IMG/VR virus record: IMGVR_UViG_3300025592_000061
Span: 1 to 25,994 of that record
Direction: 5' to 3' (one strand)
DNA: 25,994 nt
DNA from: a virus
The translations under genes and the position numbers were made by a program. Positions 3,672-25,405 of this stretch are shown here, piece after piece (position 1 is the stretch's first letter; each line of letters starts with the position of its first letter). The notes beneath the pieces are model-generated. The model was not told where the DNA came from. It searched no databases and saw only the letters and a list, made by a program, of their open reading frames with translations.

Positions 3672-4155
3672 TAATAATCGCTCGACCAGTTTTAGTTGTT
3701 TTGTCTGTAATTTGATAAGAATGAGAATACTCTTCCTCAAAATTAATTTTAACCTCTGTGTGGCCAGGATCGTCATAAAAAACTTCTTTGAGTTTAGGAG
3801 TTGGAAACGTAAAAACAATATTTTCACATATCCTTATTGCCTCATTTACAAATATTTTTTTCTTATCTGGATCAATATGTTCTATAACTTCACTACACCA
3901 TCCCCATTCCCAATGATTATCTTCAAAATGAGAACCTTTTGTTAAATCCATTACATGATCTACTTTTGGAGGCGCACCACGAATATCTAACGCTCGATAC
4001 TCTCCCCCAATACCAAGTCTCCCTTTCAGAACACCCTTATATGGACAATTTACACCAGAACCAATATCCAATATAGATCTTCTTCCTCTTGGTGGAAGAA
4101 ATAATAAAAAATATCGTATAACATTTTCTATATTTTTGTGTTCAGTTACATTCAT
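3589..4155 (-). CDS. Class I SAM-dependent methyltransferase
   Basis: ILDIGSG motif I, LDIR after strand 2, CSEVIEHI, VFTFP. ATGA overlap with the gp43 C-terminal gene. Confidence 0.8.
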   Translation of the reverse strand: MNVTEHKNIENVIRYFLLFLPPRGRRSILDIGSGVNCPYKGVLKGRLGIGGEYRALDIRGAPPKVDHVMDLTKGSHFEDNHWEWGWCSEVIEHIDPDKKKIFVNEAIRICENIVFTFPTPKLKEVFYDDPGHTEVKINFEEEYSHSYQITDKTTKTGRAIIIMNKLFDGNVVVRPAYNDGSDLNIHWR

Positions 4156-5522
4156 CCGAAAAAATCTTCAAGTGTTGATATGTATTCAGTCTGCCAACCT
4201 ATAGCAGACAACACTGTCGACATAGGATCGATGAACGATTTTTGAAACATTTTATCATAGTCGATATATTGTTCCAACTCTAACTCAGGTGGTAACCTAT
4301 TCATTATTGCAATAACTTCTCCACCAACCGTATTTGGTTTTTTGAGATATGCAAACTTTATTTTTTCACCATCTTGTATTAATGGATAATCATTTGTCAG
4401 TTTCTTGTCTTTGAGTAGTTTGTTGTAAAGTAACGCCCCCTTCACATGAACAGGAGTGCCTTTAATATACAATTGAGATGCATCGTGATATTTTGTTATC
4501 CCACGAACCGAGCGAGGAAAAAATATATCCTCTGCTTTTAATGCCCGAAACTCTTCCCTAAACTCATCAATATAATTTATCACCTCTTCTTCTGTGCCAT
4601 TCATGATGATATTAAAAATGCCTTTCATTTTTTCTTTGCACGCCGCAGGAGTAGAGGATCGAACTGATTCGATTCCCATAACCTTGAGTTGTGGGGTTTC
4701 ATATCGAACACCCTCTGCATCATATACATTCATGATATAACGTTTTTTTGCAGTCCATAGGGCCTTGTCTGCAATGTTTTCACGTTTCATGACCATCTTT
4801 TGATCGTATGCATTTACATAATCAGCAAGTTTCTGATAAGAAGCATCTATGATTTTTTCCATTTGTTCAGAACAAACCTTATCTAAAAAATCAACTACTT
4901 TATTTTTATCATCAATCGTATCTCCATAGACTTTTTTTACCAAATCATCCATGCAAATATAAACTGAATCTGTATCAACTGCCACGACATAATCTTTTTC
5001 TTTTTCTGGTTTAAGTACTTCGTTCAAATATCGATTGATTTCTTTTTCAATCCATTTAATTGAAAGTTGTCCAGATGTTGTAACGGCTTCGGCAATTCGT
5101 TGGTCAAAATATCTAAAGTGTTCGTTCCCCATTGCACCAAAAGCGGAGTTGAGCGTAGTCTTTAGATTGTTCTGCATATTATGATACTTAGAAATCAGTT
5201 TATACAATTCTACTCTCTTGTCTCCATCCTTTTCCTTCTGCAACTTTTTCTTGGTCGCAATCATCTTTTTCTTATACTTTACCCGATCATTATAAATGTC
5301 TTGCATCATCTCTGGAAGAAAACCTTGTTTATCACAACTAAATATTGCTCCATTTGGGGACATCGTGCAATTCAGTCGTTTCAGTGAAGAAAGGTCAATC
5401 TCTTTATTGACTAACTGAACAGCAGACAAAGTTTGTTTCTTCTCAAGAAGATAAACCCAATCTGCTAGTTCTTGTTTTATGTCTTCCCTTGACAGATCTT
5501 TTATATTTCTAAACTTGTTCAT
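4152..5522 (-). CDS. 43: DNA polymerase gp43, C-terminal part (fingers/palm/thumb)
   Basis: SPNGA..GFLP, motif B KTTLNSAFG, motif C VDTDSVY, KKRY, KVMGIESVRSSTP, HVKGALLYN and C-terminal clamp-binding-like LEDFFG. Confidence 0.93.
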   Translation of the reverse strand: MNKFRNIKDLSREDIKQELADWVYLLEKKQTLSAVQLVNKEIDLSSLKRLNCTMSPNGAIFSCDKQGFLPEMMQDIYNDRVKYKKKMIATKKKLQKEKDGDKRVELYKLISKYHNMQNNLKTTLNSAFGAMGNEHFRYFDQRIAEAVTTSGQLSIKWIEKEINRYLNEVLKPEKEKDYVVAVDTDSVYICMDDLVKKVYGDTIDDKNKVVDFLDKVCSEQMEKIIDASYQKLADYVNAYDQKMVMKRENIADKALWTAKKRYIMNVYDAEGVRYETPQLKVMGIESVRSSTPAACKEKMKGIFNIIMNGTEEEVINYIDEFREEFRALKAEDIFFPRSVRGITKYHDASQLYIKGTPVHVKGALLYNKLLKDKKLTNDYPLIQDGEKIKFAYLKKPNTVGGEVIAIMNRLPPELELEQYIDYDKMFQKSFIDPMSTVLSAIGWQTEYISTLEDFFG

Positions 5523-6097
5523 ATAATCTTATCTCGTTTAGAACGATTTTCCACCATTGTCAAATATTGTAAATTGTCTGGATGATGTAAACCACCCTTT
5601 GATATTGGTATAATATGGTCTATCTCATATCCATCTGGACATTTGAGATACAATTGCTCTATCACATTTTCCTCTTCTGTTGTCAATTCACATTGTGCAT
5701 CTTTCATCCAAGCTCTTCTTTTAGCGGATCTCATTGTTCTCATTTTTGTTCGATGTTTTTTACCTAAATCTCGGGCTTTTGCTGAACAACTATGACAACA
5801 ATATTTTATTTCCCATTTACCATGAGACCTAAATGGAACAACTATAAAATCACCGCCACATTCTAAACATTGCTTGGTCACCTTTCTTTCTTTGTTTTTA
5901 CATTCCGCTTCGAATGATTTTTTTATTCCAAAATTTTGTAATTTCTTTTTTATTGTCACATCTGCGACACCAAACATATCTGCTATTTCGTATCTTCTCA
6001 TATTCTGATTGACATATAATTCCAATAATTTCTCTTTTGATATGTGTACATATTTTGTATTGTTGAATGGATTTGGTATGTATTTGTTTGCTGACAT
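5519..6097 (-). mobile_element. Free-standing HNH homing endonuclease gene inserted in gene 43
   Basis: N-terminal HTH-like RRYEIADMFGVADVTIKKKL, Cys cluster CLEC...CCHSC, C-terminal EIDHIIPISKGGLHHPDNLQYLT..EN..K HNH motif. Lies between the two polymerase halves. Confidence 0.88.
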
Positions 6098-6101
6098 ATT
6101 A

Positions 6102-6156
6102 CCCCTTTTAATAGTTGTATCCTCATATAGTTATTTATAAAAACAACGAAGTGGGG
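6102..6156 (-). promoter_or_regulatory. Late promoter TATAAATA (6139..6132) inside a putative RBS-sequestering hairpin upstream of the HNH gene
   Basis: On the minus strand CCCC (6156-6153) pairs with GGGG (6105-6102, the SD) and GUUGU (6147-6143) pairs with ACAAC (6118-6114). The late box lies between the arms. Confidence 0.55.
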
Positions 6157-6166
6157 ATATAACATA

Positions 6167-7444
6167 TTACAAGGCACTTTCCAGTTCTCTCATTCTATTA
6201 TAGATTTCACTATCGCCGATTAGGTTTTCGGGGGAAATCGTATATTCCATTATCAAATGAGGATATAGAGAGTTCAAATCGAAATTCACTACCCATTCGT
6301 GGGCTCCGAGAATAGGTTCTTTCACATACGCACCTTCAAACTGTGTGGATTTGCTCGAATGTTTCTTTGGTGGAATAACAATGTTTTTCCTGAGAAGATT
6401 GTTGAAAATTAATGTATCCCACATCCGAACTTGGCCGAATGTGTTACCATAATTCACCTTGCAGAGATATGCAAGTGCAACTAACATTTCAAGCAATTTC
6501 AATTTGCTCTCTAACTCTTCGACCAGTTCCACATCTTTAATATTGTATGTGAGGAACTTCTGATAATCGTTTTTATAAAGAAGATGGAGAGAACCCTGTT
6601 CAGAATAATCAAGTTTACGTTCTCCCAATTCCACAAATGCAATGTGATCGAGTCGATATGACTCTTGATTAGTATAAGTAAATTTACGATACATCGATAA
6701 ATAATCAAGAGTTTCTACTCCCGCTATTTGGTAGGACTGAAGTTCCCGACCACCCATCCCAAAGATCATACATTCTCTAACCTTTTTCCAAGGCGAAAGT
6801 AAACGGTAAGGATTGTTCTTGTCCTTAAACAATCTTTTTGCACGATTGACAAGATACGGAATATCGAATGTTTCTATGTTCCACCCTGTAACGATATCTG
6901 GCGACTCTCTATCCCATATTTCGAAGAACTTCCGTAGAAGGGCCTCCTCACTATCAAAACGAAAATAGAAAACATTTTCTCTATCATGAACGAATTCTCC
7001 TCTACCGAAAACATAACACTTCTCATCCACTTTAATTGTGATAGCAGTTACTTCTTCGTTTGCAGTTTCGATATTTGGAAATCCATGTTCTGATCCAGTT
7101 TCTATATCAAGATATGCAATACGAATTAGTGAAAAATCATAATCAATATGTTCTTCTGGAAAGTATTCTGCAATAAAAGAAAACTCAAACTTATCGTTAC
7201 CGTAAATGTCGAAGTTGTCGATCCCCCTATACTTGCGAATAAAGTCTCCACACTCTTTCATGTTGCCTGGTCGGATTTCTCCAACTGGTTTATCTTCAAG
7301 AGTCCGAAATTTAGTTTTTTCTTTGGTAGGAACATAGAGTGTGGGTTTATACTCTACACGATCTCTAAATCTTTCACCATCGTCGGAAATACCACGGAAT
7401 AAAATGTTATTCCCTAGTCGATGCACATTTGTATAAAAACTCAT
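6167..7444 (-). CDS. 43: DNA polymerase gp43, N-terminal part (N-domain, 3'-5' exonuclease, motif A)
   Basis: ExoI YLDIETGS, ExoII GWNIETFDIPYLVNR, ExoIII YNIKDV, motif A FDLNSLYPHLIM. Ends 17 residues after ISPENL. Confidence 0.93.
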   Translation of the reverse strand: MSFYTNVHRLGNNILFRGISDDGERFRDRVEYKPTLYVPTKEKTKFRTLEDKPVGEIRPGNMKECGDFIRKYRGIDNFDIYGNDKFEFSFIAEYFPEEHIDYDFSLIRIAYLDIETGSEHGFPNIETANEEVTAITIKVDEKCYVFGRGEFVHDRENVFYFRFDSEEALLRKFFEIWDRESPDIVTGWNIETFDIPYLVNRAKRLFKDKNNPYRLLSPWKKVRECMIFGMGGRELQSYQIAGVETLDYLSMYRKFTYTNQESYRLDHIAFVELGERKLDYSEQGSLHLLYKNDYQKFLTYNIKDVELVEELESKLKLLEMLVALAYLCKVNYGNTFGQVRMWDTLIFNNLLRKNIVIPPKKHSSKSTQFEGAYVKEPILGAHEWVVNFDLNSLYPHLIMEYTISPENLIGDSEIYNRMRELESAL

Positions 7445-7541: not shown

Positions 7542-8006
7542 TCACGAAAGTAGACCATTTTTATATTGTGTCTTTCCCCCAATTCTCAAAGCGGTCATTG
7601 TTTTTCCACGATTACTACCATCCTTTTTATAAGAACAATGTATCCAGCCACTGTGGGGATCTTTGCCATCATAAAATTCCAGAATGAGTTGGTCGAAATC
7701 TAAATTTGCAGCAATCCACGCTGCAAGTTTTGGATTGGAGATTTTAGAAGACTCGAAGTCGGCCGCCTCACCGTTACAATGTTGACTAGATTTCGACCCA
7801 CCCACTTTAGCGTTCAATGTAGGGGAACGATAACCACTATTGATACGAATCGGGCCAAATTCTTCTCTCACTGGTTGTAAAATATGATTACAAAGGTTGA
7901 CCAAACCGATCACATGTTCAACTGTTGGTTCATTTGAAACATTGAGACGTTGAGCGGTTGAACTTTTTATCATTTCTAAATATGAAAAATTTTTCGTCAA
8001 ATACAT
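7542..8006 (-). CDS. Peptidase M15A-family peptidoglycan hydrolase (endolysin-like)
   Basis: INSGYRSPTLNAKVGGSKSSQHCNGEAADF and WIHCS zinc-ligand motifs. Confidence 0.85.
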   Translation of the reverse strand: MYLTKNFSYLEMIKSSTAQRLNVSNEPTVEHVIGLVNLCNHILQPVREEFGPIRINSGYRSPTLNAKVGGSKSSQHCNGEAADFESSKISNPKLAAWIAANLDFDQLILEFYDGKDPHSGWIHCSYKKDGSNRGKTMTALRIGGKTQYKNGLLS

Positions 8007-9111: not shown

Positions 9112-9119
9112 TATTTATA
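9112..9119 (-). promoter_or_regulatory. Late promoter box TATAAATA overlapping the stop of the upstream gene
   Basis: Plus strand tatttata at 9112-9119. Confidence 0.5.
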
Positions 9120-10479
9120 TATTAACATCATTAATAGAATCAAATTTACTTGTATACTTTCTATCATAATCAAGGACTTTAAATTTTACTTCTATTCTTG
9201 CCCCATACTTTTCTTCAATCGCTTCTGTATAAAAAAGGATAGATTTTTCTAACTCTACTTGTACTTTACTCCATCCTTTCTTTGATGTCCTATCTGGATG
9301 CTCAATCAAGGTTTCAAATGTCATATCTTCTTCAGGCTTTTCGAGTACAAGAAAATCCCAAAGATTTTGTTTTATCAACCTTTCTTGATCGCTTTTAAAA
9401 GATAAAACCTTATAATTATCTGTTGTATTTTGACTTATGTAATCATTCTTCTTTTGAATCAATCTATCTTCTTCACTCCAACCATTTTTTATTCTCCCCT
9501 TTCCTATTGATTTTTCTTCATCATTAATCTGTGTAGCCTTTTTTAATATTGCCCTGACCGTGTGCCCATGAAATTTACCCAAAGCTTTAAAATGAAAAAA
9601 GTTAGCATCAGAATTTATTTCAATTTTATCTTCTTTTAATCTTGATATTGCGAGTTTAACATAATGGTCATGTCCAGTTGGAGTAGAAAGTACTGTTTCT
9701 TCTGGATTTAAACCTCCACTAAGTTCTTCAATTTGAAGTTCTGTAAAAGGTTTCCCTTTCATTGTCCACAATTTTTTATCAATTAACATTAATTTCATTG
9801 AAGCATCACTCAAATTATTTTTATATTTTTTTGTTAATGCTAACGCACCCAATATATGAGAATGACCTATTCTTTTATGTTTCTTTTTACCATTATAATC
9901 TTTAAGAGTTGGAACGGGCAAAACTTTTTTTAGTTCTTCATCACCAAATTCATCAATTTTCTTAGCAATCTTTCTTTTTTGGCCAGGAACAAATCCTCCA
10001 GGCCTTGGTTGATAATAATCTAAAAATGCTATATACTCCGCATTTGAATCTATAATTGTAATACCATCTACATTTTCTCCTTTACCAACTCTATCAATTT
10101 TATTCAATAATTCTAATACAGCATCATCTTTTTTATTCACTTTTGAACCTCCATTTGTTTCATTAAAATATTCTAAATTTTCTTTTGCATTTACCGCAAG
10201 TAAATGTCTATTTTCAGCACGCCAAATGTCATCTTTGCACTTTGTTAAAAACATTATTATTGTTATTGTTACCTTATTATTATAAAAATCTCGTTCATAT
10301 TCTTCTAGATGAGTTACTACACTACCATAATACTCATCACGAATTGCAAGTTCTCCTTCTTTTCCACCACCATACTTATGTCTTAACTTACCACTATGAA
10401 TTTTAACTTCATACACATAACCATAATAATGTTTTGGTTCTTCTATACCATCTTTAAATTTATATTTAACATTATGCAT
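9115..10479 (-). CDS. Large protein with a degenerate N-terminal GIY-YIG-like domain and possibly a ParB-like middle domain; start reassigned to ATG 10479
   Basis: GYVYEVK...KYGGG...EYYGS and AEN..LL...AKEN.EYFNETNGG resemble Seg-like GIY-YIG proteins. The track's TTG start at 10563 would run through the tRNA. Confidence 0.6.
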   Translation of the reverse strand: MHNVKYKFKDGIEEPKHYYGYVYEVKIHSGKLRHKYGGGKEGELAIRDEYYGSVVTHLEEYERDFYNNKVTITIIMFLTKCKDDIWRAENRHLLAVNAKENLEYFNETNGGSKVNKKDDAVLELLNKIDRVGKGENVDGITIIDSNAEYIAFLDYYQPRPGGFVPGQKRKIAKKIDEFGDEELKKVLPVPTLKDYNGKKKHKRIGHSHILGALALTKKYKNNLSDASMKLMLIDKKLWTMKGKPFTELQIEELSGGLNPEETVLSTPTGHDHYVKLAISRLKEDKIEINSDANFFHFKALGKFHGHTVRAILKKATQINDEEKSIGKGRIKNGWSEEDRLIQKKNDYISQNTTDNYKVLSFKSDQERLIKQNLWDFLVLEKPEEDMTFETLIEHPDRTSKKGWSKVQVELEKSILFYTEAIEEKYGARIEVKFKVLDYDRKYTSKFDSINDVNI

Positions 10480-10491
10480 TCTATTCTCTGT

Positions 10492-10561
10492 TGGAGCGAG
10501 CAGTTGGCTTCGCACCAACCTCTTCAGAATGGAATTCCAAAGCGTTCTAATAACTACTCGC
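10492..10561 (-). tRNA. Non-canonical tRNA-Gly(UCC), 70 nt, with encoded CCA
   Basis: GCGAGUA/UGCUCGC acceptor stem, discriminator U, CCA. Anticodon stem UUGGA/UCUGA with loop AU-UCC-AU (anticodon 10533-10531). T-stem GUUGG/CCAAC with loop UGCGAAG. Shortened D-arm. Confidence 0.85.
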
Positions 10562-10568
10562 AATTATA

Positions 10569-11402
10569 TCAATTGTAAAATTTATCAAGGGTTGATGGAA
10601 TTTTCTTATTGTATTTAGCACTCTCAAACGTAAATGGTGGGCATTCTTTTAGAGTTTTTTTATTCTTCATATCTGTAACATCAACCCATTCCAATTGTTT
10701 ACTTTTTGGATAATTTTTATCCCAATTCATTGATGATTCTCTCAACATCATTCTTTTAGCTTTCTTATTCAATGGATAAAGATAACGAAACATTAGACCA
10801 TTGATTCGTTTGATACCCTTGTGTTCCATAAAATCAGTAGTCATCCAGAATACTCTTTCTTTACCAGAAAATTCAGCATTTTCTTTACACAATTCTTTTG
10901 ATGTTCGTGGATGTAATTTTTCTCCGTTCTCCATCAAATATACTGAAGTAAAATATTGCTCTCCGTAATAAAAGTTTGATGCTTGATAAACAAATCCGCA
11001 CTTGCCCATAATACCATCTGCCATTGTATAGAGGAATTGACACGTTGTGTTGTTTTTCAACCACTTAATAGTAGAAGAAACCATCTGACTTCCAGCGCCT
11101 TTAGTATCATTGAGGTCTATTGTCAAACACATCTTTCCGATCTCATAATACCAATCGTTTATATCATGTATAAAATTTTCATCTTTTTTTTCTAAAATCC
11201 CAACATTCGGAAACATCTTATTGAAAGTATGTCTTGGTTTAGTGCCCCATCCCAATGTCAAGGCTCCCTTCAATTCACCATTCAAAAAAAAACCAAGATA
11301 GTGCTTTGTTATGGCGGGCATTACTGGTGAGTAATGATATTTCTGAACAAAATTTGTAGCGAGAGTTTTATCTATTTCTATTACTTCAAATTCAAATTTC
11401 AT
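10569..11402 (-). CDS. mom: Mom-family (GNAT-fold) DNA adenine modification enzyme
   Basis: FVQKYHYS, G.F..GEL.GA.T.G, YEIGKMCL, SQMVSSTIKWL and ADG..G..G.VYQASNFYYG match the Mom-family pattern as I recall it. Confidence 0.8.
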   Translation of the reverse strand: MKFEFEVIEIDKTLATNFVQKYHYSPVMPAITKHYLGFFLNGELKGALTLGWGTKPRHTFNKMFPNVGILEKKDENFIHDINDWYYEIGKMCLTIDLNDTKGAGSQMVSSTIKWLKNNTTCQFLYTMADGIMGKCGFVYQASNFYYGEQYFTSVYLMENGEKLHPRTSKELCKENAEFSGKERVFWMTTDFMEHKGIKRINGLMFRYLYPLNKKAKRMMLRESSMNWDKNYPKSKQLEWVDVTDMKNKKTLKECPPFTFESAKYNKKIPSTLDKFYN

Positions 11403-11829
11403 TTTTTATAAATGATAAAGTTTTATCATCCTCATATCGAATTAATGTTACTTCTGGATAATCCTTAGACATTTTTAATAAATTTTCAAAAATAGTCCAT
11501 CCAGGCCCGCCACAAATTATAAATGCTTTTGTATAAAGTCTAGAGAGAATTTTTTCTTTCAATGTCCACATTTCATATCCAACCTTTTCTTCAGTTGTAC
11601 CACCTGTATTTTGTAATTTCACAGAAACAATTATTTTTGAATTAACTAAAATATCTACTATATGTTTATGATTTCTAAACTTATTACCAATAGTTACTTG
11701 TTCTGATATTTCACATCCATCATATTTTCTTAATATAGTTGCTATATGTTTTTCAAATTCTTTTCCACTATGATACTCATCGGTAACAATATCATTACCG
11801 AATACATCTATTTGACCAGTTTTATACAT
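11392..11829 (-). CDS. PD-(D/E)XK restriction-endonuclease-like nuclease
   Basis: SGKEFE helix, VDILVN, then IVSVKLQNTGGTTEEKV (S-x-K variant plus QxxxGxxxEK). Overlaps the mom start by 11 nt. Confidence 0.7.
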   Translation of the reverse strand: MYKTGQIDVFGNDIVTDEYHSGKEFEKHIATILRKYDGCEISEQVTIGNKFRNHKHIVDILVNSKIIVSVKLQNTGGTTEEKVGYEMWTLKEKILSRLYTKAFIICGGPGWTIFENLLKMSKDYPEVTLIRYEDDKTLSFIKNEI

Positions 11830-11859
11830 ATTTTTTCAATTCTCATTAAGGTATATGTC

Positions 11860-11888
11860 ATTATAACAAATTTTAGTAACATTGTCAA
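11860..11888 (-). promoter_or_regulatory. Sigma70-like promoter for the nuclease-mom-tRNA cassette
   Basis: AAAAC-TTGACA (11888-11883), N17, TATAAT (11865-11860). Confidence 0.78.
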
Positions 11889-11891
11889 GTT

Positions 11892-12137
11892 TTAATTGAG
11901 CTTAAATTTTCTGTCTACTAATCTGACCTCACTTTGGCCTTGATCATAGATATATACTTCTTTGATTGGGCCGTCAATGTTCTTGTCCCAATAATTTAAA
12001 AACTTAGTTATACGTGGAAATTCTGGTATTTGGTCTTCTGTCTGCCACACAAATTCATTCACAATATGTAAATAATCTGGAATGTAATATACTACTTGAA
12101 CTGTAGCAACTGTCCATTTGTGCAAGATATATGCCAA
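11892..12137 (-). CDS. Usg-like protein
   Basis: T.QVVYYIPDY.H....FVWQ..D..PEFP....FL.YW...IDGP matches the Usg family pattern as I recall it. Confidence 0.7.
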   Translation of the reverse strand: MAYILHKWTVATVQVVYYIPDYLHIVNEFVWQTEDQIPEFPRITKFLNYWDKNIDGPIKEVYIYDQGQSEVRLVDRKFKLN

Positions 12138-24361: not shown

Positions 24362-24391
24362 ATTATAACACAGAAATGTACTGAATGTCAA
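24362..24391 (-). promoter_or_regulatory. Sigma70-like promoter
   Basis: TTGACA (24391-24386), N18, TATAAT (24367-24362). Confidence 0.65.
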
Positions 24392-25230
24392 GTTTTTTTA
24401 TCAAAACCCATCATGTCTCTTGTGAGTTTGGTCTTTGGAACATTGGCCGCAATCCAACCCAAAAGTTGTCGTTTAATATCTATTTCTGGCCCGACAGATT
24501 TTCCCTCTTCCTTGAAGGTTAGGTAGGTGAAATCTTTGACAACGATATTTCCCTGAGATGTTTTCATTGGTTTCTTTGTGTCGGGATCGACATAAGGAAT
24601 GGTGTTATCTCTATTATTGAGAACAACCCTAACTCCGCCATTCAATCCTTTTGGGAGTTTTCCTTTGATAATATCGTACATATTCGTTGCGGCTCCCTCG
24701 TGAGAAGATAACATGATGTCTTCCGGTACAACTCTTTTACGATTTCTGTTGTTTACAATCGCAATTGCATAATTTGTCAAAACCCATGTGAGATGAATAT
24801 TTTTAGCATCATATCCTGCCTTTGTCAATTTAGGAACAATGTTTCCTATATCACTTGCATCTTTCATCGTAATATCGAACATGATATTGGGGAGTCTATC
24901 TGAATTGACATCTCTAAGTAGAAGATCAAGAGACTTGTCTTTTATTCCCATGTCCTTCACAAAACGATGTATTTTGGCAACATCTTTAGGATTTTTCAGA
25001 TTCAATCCTTTAATCTCTGGATATTTTCCTTGTGTGTCTGCCAATTTCATTAATGCGGTCTTCCATTCATCAACATCACGAATTTTGAACAATTCACCTT
25101 GCATAAAGTTTTTTATTGCAAAACCTTTTCCACTGCCAGCACCGCCTGCGAGGAAAACTATTTGACCATATCTCTTTCCCTGACCATATAGTATGAGTTT
25201 TTCTTCGAGATATTGTTGGAAATTAAGCAT
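24388..25230 (-). CDS. P-loop kinase/NTPase (zeta-toxin/AAA_33-like)
   Basis: VFLAGGAGSGKGF, RDVD, MFDIT, RNRKR..PE..M..SH. Confidence 0.72.
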   Translation of the reverse strand: MLNFQQYLEEKLILYGQGKRYGQIVFLAGGAGSGKGFAIKNFMQGELFKIRDVDEWKTALMKLADTQGKYPEIKGLNLKNPKDVAKIHRFVKDMGIKDKSLDLLLRDVNSDRLPNIMFDITMKDASDIGNIVPKLTKAGYDAKNIHLTWVLTNYAIAIVNNRNRKRVVPEDIMLSSHEGAATNMYDIIKGKLPKGLNGGVRVVLNNRDNTIPYVDPDTKKPMKTSQGNIVVKDFTYLTFKEEGKSVGPEIDIKRQLLGWIAANVPKTKLTRDMMGFDKKT

Positions 25231-25330: not shown

Positions 25331-25405
25331 TGGTACTCCGTATGGGTTCTGCCCCCATCTGACCGCCTTGAAAGGGCGGTGACCACACTAGCCGTCCCAC
25401 GGAGC
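25331..25405 (-). tRNA. Non-canonical tRNA-Glu(UUC), 75 nt, with encoded CCA
   Basis: GCUCCGU GG GAC GGCUAGUGUG GUC A CCGCC CU-UUC-AA GGCGG UCAG AUGGG GGCAGAA CCCAU ACGGAGU A CCA. All four stems pair; anticodon at 25372-25370. Confidence 0.88.

Follow-up and report, generated by a model that had tools for sequence, protein, structure and literature searches.

Does a phage that encodes a Mom-family DNA-modification enzyme also carry a tRNA set aside to supply that enzyme with glycine? The question is raised by a stretch of viral DNA of 25,994 nucleotides (nt) (IMG/VR record IMGVR_UViG_3300025592_000061, positions 1 to 25,994; we refer to the whole stretch as the window), in which a mom gene is followed by a tRNA-Gly-like gene of unusual anatomy. 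The first-pass annotation of the window had read the pair as an enzyme with its own RNA cofactor. We found that the RNA is a real, conserved tRNA-Gly-like gene, one of a large unannotated family in marine T4-like phages, and that most loci of this family lack Mom. In our judgement there is an even chance that it is a general phage tRNA-Gly bordering an island of DNA-modification and anti-restriction genes, one that Mom could use and that is not reserved for Mom.

Mom and the RNA beside it

The two genes at issue are:

10569–11402, minus strand: mom, a Mom-family GNAT gene of 277 amino acids (aa), identified by Pfam PF25680 and the Mu Mom structure 8bv8
10492–10561, minus strand: a non-canonical tRNA-Gly(UCC)-like gene of 70 nt with an encoded CCA, here called type A, identified from its sequence, from covariance model R1 and from covariation

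As the first-pass annotation had supposed, the window protein belongs to the Mom family, judging by its profile and structure matches. The Pfam Mom profile (PF25680) aligned from position 2 to position 202 of its 202 positions and scored 157.1 bits (E 5.9e-46, cut-off 27.1). The protein also matches phrog_1384 of PHROG, and its sole sequence match in the PDB is the Mu Mom structure 8bv8 (E 4e-6). A phmmer comparison with Mu Mom gave 29.5 bits, the identity being too low for a firm figure. Allowing for an offset of 9 between the chain index of 8bv8 and the numbering of the Mu Mom paper, Mu residues H58, Y59, S124, D149 and Y159 are all retained, as H23, Y24, S105, D129 and Y139 of the window protein. 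Two Mu arginines differ: R111 corresponds to K90, a lysine invariant across the marine Mom clade, and R151 to I131, also invariant in that clade, whose motif reads ADGIMGK against ADERCGR in Mu. Both arginines are essential in Mu Mom, and the R111K variant has drastically reduced activity (Silva 2026). With these two replacements, what the window protein shares with Mu Mom is a family, and shared chemistry is not proven.

Mu Mom moves glycine from Gly-tRNA-Gly onto N6 of adenine in double-stranded DNA, as the first-pass annotation had stated and as Silva et al. (Nat Commun 2026) confirm. Mu further differs from the window in that it uses host tRNA-Gly and has no tRNA gene beside mom.

In the window, the TGA stop codon of mom (10571–10569) is followed by the 7-nt spacer TATAATT and then by a 70-nt element, running from 10561 to 10492, that reads as a cloverleaf and ends in TCCA. 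The acceptor stem of 7 base pairs (bp; GCGAGTA/TGCTCGC) begins with G1-C72, C2-G71 and G3-C70 and leads into U73 and CCA. The anticodon loop, AUUCCAU, holds the anticodon UCC as well as A32 and U38; the variable loop is 4 nt long; and the T arm, GUUGG-UGCGAAG-CCAAC, contains G55 and a U51-A63 pair. Position 8 is a G, and the D region, 14 nt between the acceptor and anticodon stems, offers AG only and no GG. In place of the canonical U8, G18-G19 and T54-Psi55-C56 the RNA has G8, an AG D-loop and UGCGAAG. It possesses the complete glycyl-tRNA synthetase (GlyRS) identity set established in E. coli, namely G1-C72, C2-G71, G3-C70, U73, C35 and C36. Spacing, cloverleaf, identity set and each of the odd features had been listed in the first-pass annotation, and we read all of them in the sequence.

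The expectation that standard finders may miss such an RNA was borne out. ARAGORN called no tRNA in the whole window, and the Rfam tRNA model (RF00005) scored the RNA at 12.2 bits (E 9.7), short of its gathering score of 29. The false TTG start said to cover the RNA is also there: a TTG-started frame in the open reading frame (ORF) list, 9115–10563, spans it, and the 482-aa form (P0392) is present in public gene calls. The minimum-free-energy fold of the RNA taken alone is not a cloverleaf (z −2.8); we gave this little weight either way and used comparative evidence. Covariance model R1, built from type B relatives only (described below) and without the window, recovered the window RNA over its full length (29.9 bits, E 1.7e-4), and an identical copy lies 3 nt past a 99%-identical mom in another locus (L001). 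The observation of a Mom gene with an adjoining, odd tRNA-Gly-like gene is confirmed.

The RNA family and its relation to T4 tRNA-Gly

Pattern scans for the RNA alone returned 36 type A loci, one of which (L089) proved to be a chance match with no cloverleaf, and at least 120 type B loci. The two types are branches of one family: type A, to which the window belongs, starts with GCGAGTA, and type B starts with GCGGNNN and has the T-loop GGCAGTA. Stem covariation, suggested earlier as a check on the RNA, is strong in every stem of both. In type B, with 54 distinct sequences, pairing in the cloverleaf reaches 95.1%, compared with 34–45% when partners are slid, and 15 of the 21 pairs have changed on both sides, a number equalled in none of 500 shuffles. 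Type A, with 24 sequences including the window, is 99.3% paired (39–49% when slid), with nine pairs changed on both sides. Both alignments hold G1-C72, C2-G71, G3-C70, U73, C35 and C36 invariant, and every member encodes CCA.

Covariation extends to the elbow. In the 115 unique cloverleaves of the loci examined, G55 occurs 66 times without a D-loop GG and five times with it, and U55 occurs 43 times with GG and never without. This covariation implies that the L-shape is under selection, an A18/G55 contact replacing the usual G18/Psi55. A blastn search with the window RNA against 50,697 phage records gave no match, and a type B query matched the phage Mosig alone. Type A genes also occur as tandem pairs 4–25 nt apart (L092:1357–1500, L106:130–294, and L105:100–171 and 972–1042); in L105 one copy stands on either side of mom.

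By sequence comparison the family is a divergent T4-type tRNA-Gly. Type B matches T4 tRNA-Gly almost letter for letter in the acceptor stem and D arm and departs from it in the T-loop and in the D-loop, where G18 has become A, and type A of the window is tied to T4 tRNA-Gly through the type B model R1 (29.9 bits). With T4 tRNA-Gly(UCC) (T4t006, NC_000866 72291–72364) the window RNA shares the anticodon, U73, the encoded CCA, the three leading acceptor pairs and a T4-like phage as its bearer. T4 tRNA-Gly, however, has a canonical GG D-loop and a TTCGA T-loop and is readily called by finders, whereas the family has a G55 T-loop and a single-G D-loop, and the window type A has in addition a shortened D arm, no U8 and a Watson-Crick 32-38 pair. 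Type A often stands first in tRNA arrays such as Gly-Thr-His-Pro, type B is at times trailed 5 nt later by tRNA-Gly(GCC), and several copies of the RNA have, by sequence match, their own TTGAC-N17-TATATT promoter.

Association of the RNA with Mom and other enzymes

Is the RNA a donor dedicated to Mom, the two forming an enzyme-plus-RNA-cofactor cassette like staphylococcal non-proteogenic (NP) tRNA-Gly with the Fem ligases? The first-pass annotation had drawn this parallel, and the likeness it named holds: S. aureus NP tRNA-Gly has the anticodon UCC, a TGC T-loop and a GG-less D-loop, and its binding to EF-Tu and the ribosome was measured as weak (Rietmeyer 2020), which the argument for a dedicated donor takes as binding to neither. 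NP1–NP3 of S. aureus and S. epidermidis, donors for FmhB, FemA and FemB, share with the window RNA the UCC anticodon, TGC in place of TTC and the lack of the pseudouridine site. Like them, the window RNA is a candidate glycyl-tRNA that could feed a GNAT-type aminoacyl transferase. The NP tRNAs, by contrast, are cellular, serve peptidoglycan synthesis and have had their binding measured, while the window RNA offers sequence hallmarks alone, descends from a phage tRNA-Gly and is not always accompanied by the enzyme.

In a dedicated cassette, enzyme and RNA would occur together and each would be rare alone. We found departures from this in both directions. Relatives of the window Mom (53–99% identity) are present in 80 viral contigs, and 17 of these 80 Mom-first loci have a related cloverleaf 1–78 nt past the mom stop on the same strand; the co-occurrence that had been proposed as a check is real there, and it extends over four Mom clades. 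It is not general: 43 of 68 evaluable distinct Mom genes lack the RNA, the RNA model finds no match in a Mom contig of 146 kb whose completeness is rated at 85%, and in a further Mom contig a Gly(ACC)-like RNA stands 8 kb away from Mom. Among ten other Mom lineages sampled, no full tRNA-like gene stands beside Mom, though one lineage has a minihelix there. Five cultured Mom phages (of Psychrobacter, Edwardsiella, Enterococcus, Polaribacter and Bacillus) have no tRNA-like gene within 1.5 kb, and six distant Mom representatives, mostly on short contigs, have no full one at about five evaluable places. A scan of genome contigs with the Mom alignment returned only two loci, one of them with tRNA-His and tRNA-Pro on either side of Mom, too few for a census. 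The profile search that followed used the Mom alignment without its Melnitz row.

Seen from the RNA, the departure is larger. Mom adjoins the RNA in 6 of the 120 type B loci listed (at least 120 exist), with Mom 6 kb away in two more, and about 110 of those 120 lack Mom. Among type A loci, Mom adjoins the RNA in 17, a Mom-like match lies 0.9 kb away in two, and 13 evaluable loci have none. In the complete 141-kb genome of Pelagibacter phage Mosig (MT647606) the RNA sits between Hsp20 and gp45, and Mom is absent. The proposal of a dedicated cassette is not sustained: the RNA is mostly without Mom, Mom is found without the RNA, and ordinary isoacceptors suffice for Mu Mom.

The Mosig RNA, a type B gene with the anticodon ACC (7779–7852, equal to L233:5001–5074), appears in GenBank as Mosig_000011, a hypothetical protein of 31 aa. 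Melnitz likewise has no full tRNA-like gene beside its Mom: a match to the RNA model in that region turned out to be a canonical tRNA-Trp 930 nt upstream and was set aside. About 90 nt past a distant mom (L246, approximately 1113–1160) lies a minihelix of acceptor and T arm that lacks an anticodon arm (GCGCCT ... GCAGG-TTCGACT-CCTGC ... AGGCGC, then G and CCA). A canonical tRNA-Tyr stands 34 nt past mom in L065 (3829–3914), and in L237 mom is flanked by tRNA-His and tRNA-Pro (62–138 and 924–1000). These last two cases show that part of the pattern is that Mom lives in tRNA regions.

The position that Mom takes beside the RNA is open to other genes. In at least 66 type B loci the RNA is followed next by the gene for the gp45 sliding clamp. 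Among the matches listed, the slot upstream of the type B RNA holds peroxiredoxin, Hsp20, a ParB-like protein, proteins of no known kind or Mom, and also Dam D12 methylase (15), a GmrSD-like DUF262-HNH protein (11) and a DruA-like GNAT (7). We considered the HNH neighbours as Mom fusions and rejected this, since they are the DUF262-HNH (GmrSD-like) proteins.

The odd features of the RNA do not single out the copies beside Mom. They had been put forward as 'ribosome-poor' marks of a Mom donor, a claim that the comparison does not support: they are family-wide, and among unique type A forms with UCC, G55 is found in six of eight beside Mom and in nine of 13 without Mom. The A18/G55 switch is also seen in phage tRNA-Gly(GCC) genes that lie about 2 kb away and are ordinary in other respects, in single genes of His-, Asp-, Arg- and Ala-like identity, and in a Glu-like RNA of the window. 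For Mu Mom any of the three E. coli tRNA-Gly isoacceptors will do, and Gly-tRNA-Ala is rejected (Silva 2026), so that any chargeable tRNA-Gly body should serve and a special donor is unneeded; the rejection can also be taken in favour of a dedicated donor, as a sign that the tRNA-Gly body matters.

The tRNA-Gly(GCC) genes with the switch include L114:11673–11747, L123:985–1059 and L216:2891–2965; in these and others the pair AGTGGTA (D-loop) and TTCGAAT (T-loop) has become AGTAGTA or AGGAGTA with TGCGAAT, and some T-loops read AGCGTTA or AGCGTAA. The Glu-like RNA is a second unannotated tRNA-like gene of the window (25331–25405, minus strand), with the anticodon UUC, the T-loop GGCAGAA, the acceptor stem GCTCCGT/ACGGAGT, A73 and CCA; ARAGORN misses it. 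It is present in four other viral contigs, where the anticodon stem shows a compensated change from CCGCC/GGCGG to CTGTC/GGCAG, and the next gene after it (24388–25230) encodes a Zeta_toxin-like P-loop kinase.

The G55 elbow is found in 66 of 84 unique Gly-like genes and in five of 31 of other identities, an enrichment that calls for an explanation tied to glycine. One such explanation is that the altered elbow and anticodon arm let a phage tRNA-Gly escape host enzymes that act on tRNA-Gly or its glycylated form, for instance tRNA nucleases or GNAT toxins, and so sustain translation, with Mom a mere neighbour in a counter-defence island. The enrichment fits, as it covers both UCC and GCC genes, with or without Mom. 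GNAT toxins single out tRNA-Gly (noted in Silva 2026), and phage tRNAs that evade tRNA-targeting defences by sequence change are documented (eLife 2023 PMC10264068; Nat Commun 2024 PMC11555353). The slot adjoining the RNA is full of restriction and anti-restriction genes. We know of no host enzyme that targets the elbow of tRNA-Gly, however, nor do the present data identify such a defence in the hosts, and the preference of Mom for the directly upstream position would go unexplained. We consider escape from host defence quite improbable.

Several observations weigh against a general tRNA-Gly, and we set them out together. In its anatomy type A bears little resemblance to a normal bacterial elongator tRNA: its D stem of 3–4 bp begins at position 8, there is no U8, U51-A63 is the usual pair, and each of the 24 sequences has a Watson-Crick 32-38 pair (17 A-U, seven G-C). 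Position 34 varies between U and A, the anticodon being ACC in Mosig and in three type A variants, and some copies, mostly beside Mom, have anticodon loops of 6 nt. The reduced type A core, the variation at position 34 and the short loops would favour relaxed decoding. In every adjacent pair the RNA lies downstream of mom, on the same strand and 1–125 nt away. A tree of 73 distinct Moms distributes the genes adjacent to the RNA over four clades and requires at least five state changes, and the most distant Mom clade has type A RNA and a nearer one type B, an incongruence which implies that enzyme and RNA were joined more than once. Directly downstream of mom in the 80 Mom-first loci, tRNA-like genes are Gly-like in 17 cases and Tyr in one. 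A neutral hot spot would not easily account for adjacency this close and this often repeated.

There is also a precedent: in the ssrA islands of Dehalococcoides, the mom homologue contains a tRNA-Gly-like 'pseudo-tRNA' (McMurdie et al., BMC Genomics 2011). In both cases a mobile element carries a mom homologue with a conserved tRNA-Gly-like gene physically attached to it. In Dehalococcoides, however, the RNA falls inside mom, within its first 150 bp, and the element is an integrative Chloroflexi island, whereas in the window the RNA closely follows mom and the bearer is a lytic T4-like phage, and McMurdie et al. (2011) proposed no functional link between the two.

A second enzyme in the slot adds to these points. 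In at least seven loci a DruA/DUF4338-like protein of 389 aa (PF14236) is encoded 43–46 nt upstream of the RNA. Its AlphaFold model (predicted local distance difference test, pLDDT, 87.5) has a GNAT fold, and a fold search of 48,161 chains placed Mu Mom first (Z 9.8, root-mean-square deviation 4.3, 173 residues aligned); ordinary GNATs follow within 1 Z, which makes the order a tie. Foldseek gave weak GNAT matches only for this model, and hhalign found no match between the Mom profile and single neighbours (the DruA-like protein, the HNH protein, three unknowns and ORF454, the frame that follows the RNA in the window).

DruA-like genes also lie between DNA polymerase B and a group of MazG and a Tet_JBP dioxygenase, or after Hsp20 and peroxiredoxin (L260/L261:1501–4119 and L252–L259); in the loci L252–L261 no tRNA-like gene directly follows them. 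This gene context suggests that the DruA-like protein may act in DNA or nucleotide modification.

How do these points bear on a donor dedicated to Mom? In its favour are the hallmarks shared with the S. aureus NP tRNA-Gly, the GlyRS identity set kept invariant while position 34 varies and some Mom-linked loops shrink to 6 nt, the predicted co-transcription with Mom (no terminator following the promoter), the Dehalococcoides precedent, and the placement of the RNA directly behind Mom in four clades and behind a DruA-like GNAT for which the structural comparison ranks Mu Mom first. Set against them are the complete Mosig genome and the majority of loci, with RNA and no Mom; the 85%-complete contig and the ten other lineages, with Mom and no RNA; odd features that are shared with tRNA-Gly(GCC) and with Glu-, His-, Asp-, Arg- and Ala-like genes and not enriched beside Mom; a family that descends from T4 tRNA-Gly and occurs in ordinary tRNA arrays; a Mu enzyme that requires no special isoacceptor; and DruA-like genes that are commonly without an adjacent RNA. 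We regard a dedicated donor as unlikely, and as worth retaining since tight placement next to Mom, and next to a Mom-like GNAT, keeps recurring. A wider version would make the family a set of non-decoding glycyl-carrier RNAs derived from tRNA-Gly: chargeable by GlyRS, shielded from EF-Tu and the ribosome by the A18/G55 elbow and a closed anticodon loop, and serving as acyl donors for Mom and for DruA/DUF4338 GNATs, with the window pair as one instance. This is conceivable, and we hold it to be rather doubtful.

Three copies of type B with the 6-nt loop UUCCAA and compensated stems can be given by position: L041:3833–3905, L063:3880–3952 and L152:9853–9925. The L041 form, which is also present in four further contigs, and the L063 form lie directly behind Mom; the L152 locus has no Mom.

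Predicted transcription unit and proposed role

Three further features define the surroundings of mom and the RNA:

11860–11888, minus strand: predicted sigma-70-type promoter (TTGACA, 17 nt, TATAAT, with TG; 12 of 12 consensus matches)
11392–11829, minus strand: PD-(D/E)XK nuclease-superfamily gene, 145 aa (PF20472 PDDEXK_11, E 2.5e-9; phrog_6124)
9115–10479, minus strand: ORF454, 454 aa, which starts 13 nt past the CCA of the RNA and has six relatives only

The window genes around mom are all on the minus strand. The 3' end of the PD-(D/E)XK gene overlaps the start of mom by 11 nt, and no terminator-like site was found across 10300–11900. Promoter, overlap and lack of a terminator together point to a unit of PD-(D/E)XK nuclease, Mom, RNA and ORF454, and this four-part unit is likely to be one transcript. 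Parts of the window are present as contigs in four metatranscriptome runs from three studies, which is not proof of transcription. In one run the contigs abut at 10559–10564, the 5' end of the RNA, and a contig from another study bridges this point; we drew no conclusion from it.

ORF454 matches no Pfam family (also when searched as halves) and no PHROG family. Its N-terminus (10093–10479) gives a weak structural hint of a SegE-like GIY-YIG domain, with the motif GYVYEV ... KYGGGK, from a poor Atlas model only. The hint was not confirmed: Pfam on the halves was empty, and the AlphaFold model of the N-terminus (pLDDT 34) was unusable. A GIY-YIG-like motif just after the RNA recalls segB, the homing endonuclease gene within the T4 tRNA cluster (T4 genome record).

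These observations bear on whether the RNA is a working tRNA at all. It might instead be a tRNA-derived processing signal that splits mom from the downstream message, or a landing site at which a homing endonuclease shuffles cargo. Such a role would suit the hypervariability of the slot beside the RNA, the T4 precedent of segB, the hint in ORF454 and the break between metatranscriptome contigs at the RNA 5' end. The hint is the unconfirmed one just described, however, and the conservation goes beyond what cleavage or landing would need: there is no variation at CCA, U73, C35, C36 or the three leading acceptor pairs, and all four stems and the elbow covary. Several copies, moreover, have a promoter of their own. 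We think it very improbable that the RNA is not a working tRNA.

The wider surroundings are T4-like, with RegA, gp62-like and gp44-like clamp-loader subunits, the gp45 sliding clamp, a dUTPase, Hsp20 and a family B DNA polymerase. The window has a GC content of 35%, and glycine is encoded in its ORFs by GGA 179 times (38%), GGT 190, GGC 41 and GGG 56. The polymerase (window 4152–7444, minus strand) is split over two ORFs, 6167–7444 for the exonuclease part and 4152–5522 for the polymerase part, with a 192-aa ORF (5519–6097) between them.

Taking the RNA as a general phage tRNA-Gly, we propose the following course of events. A predicted strong, early-type promoter would drive a single transcript of the PD-(D/E)XK nuclease, Mom, RNA and ORF454 genes, from which, we infer, host tRNA-processing enzymes would cut the RNA. 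Host GlyRS would then charge it, as the invariance of G1-C72, C2-G71, G3-C70, U73, C35 and C36 across the family leads us to expect, with the L-shape presumably held by A18/G55 instead of G18/Psi55. Its main role would be to provide a phage-supplied pool of Gly-tRNA-Gly, probably used in translation, in phages of SAR11/OM43-type hosts. Mom, as Mu Mom does, could take glycine from this pool to modify adenine in phage DNA, and co-transcription would give it a local supply of the donor. The tRNA gene would border a hypervariable slot for DNA-modification and anti-restriction genes, in which Mom is one of several alternative cargoes.

A literature search found no paper that joins the need of Mom for Gly-tRNA-Gly, the staphylococcal tRNA-Gly and the Dehalococcoides mom RNA for phages. 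To these we add the homology to T4 tRNA-Gly, the covariation of the elbow, the variable-slot context and counter-examples in both directions.

With a single enzyme of 277 aa and a single RNA of 70 nt, the locus makes a compact, testable case. Beyond it, the family suggests that abundant ocean phages carry hundreds of unannotated tRNA-Gly genes with this A18/G55 elbow, genes which are missed or, as in Mosig, mis-called as small ORFs. Should the RNA be an ordinary decoding tRNA, a working elongator without U8, G18 and Psi55 would still be of interest to tRNA biologists, and tRNA finders would need correction for phages. If it is after all a dedicated donor, it would be a second natural tRNA reserved for non-ribosomal chemistry, in this instance the modification of DNA.

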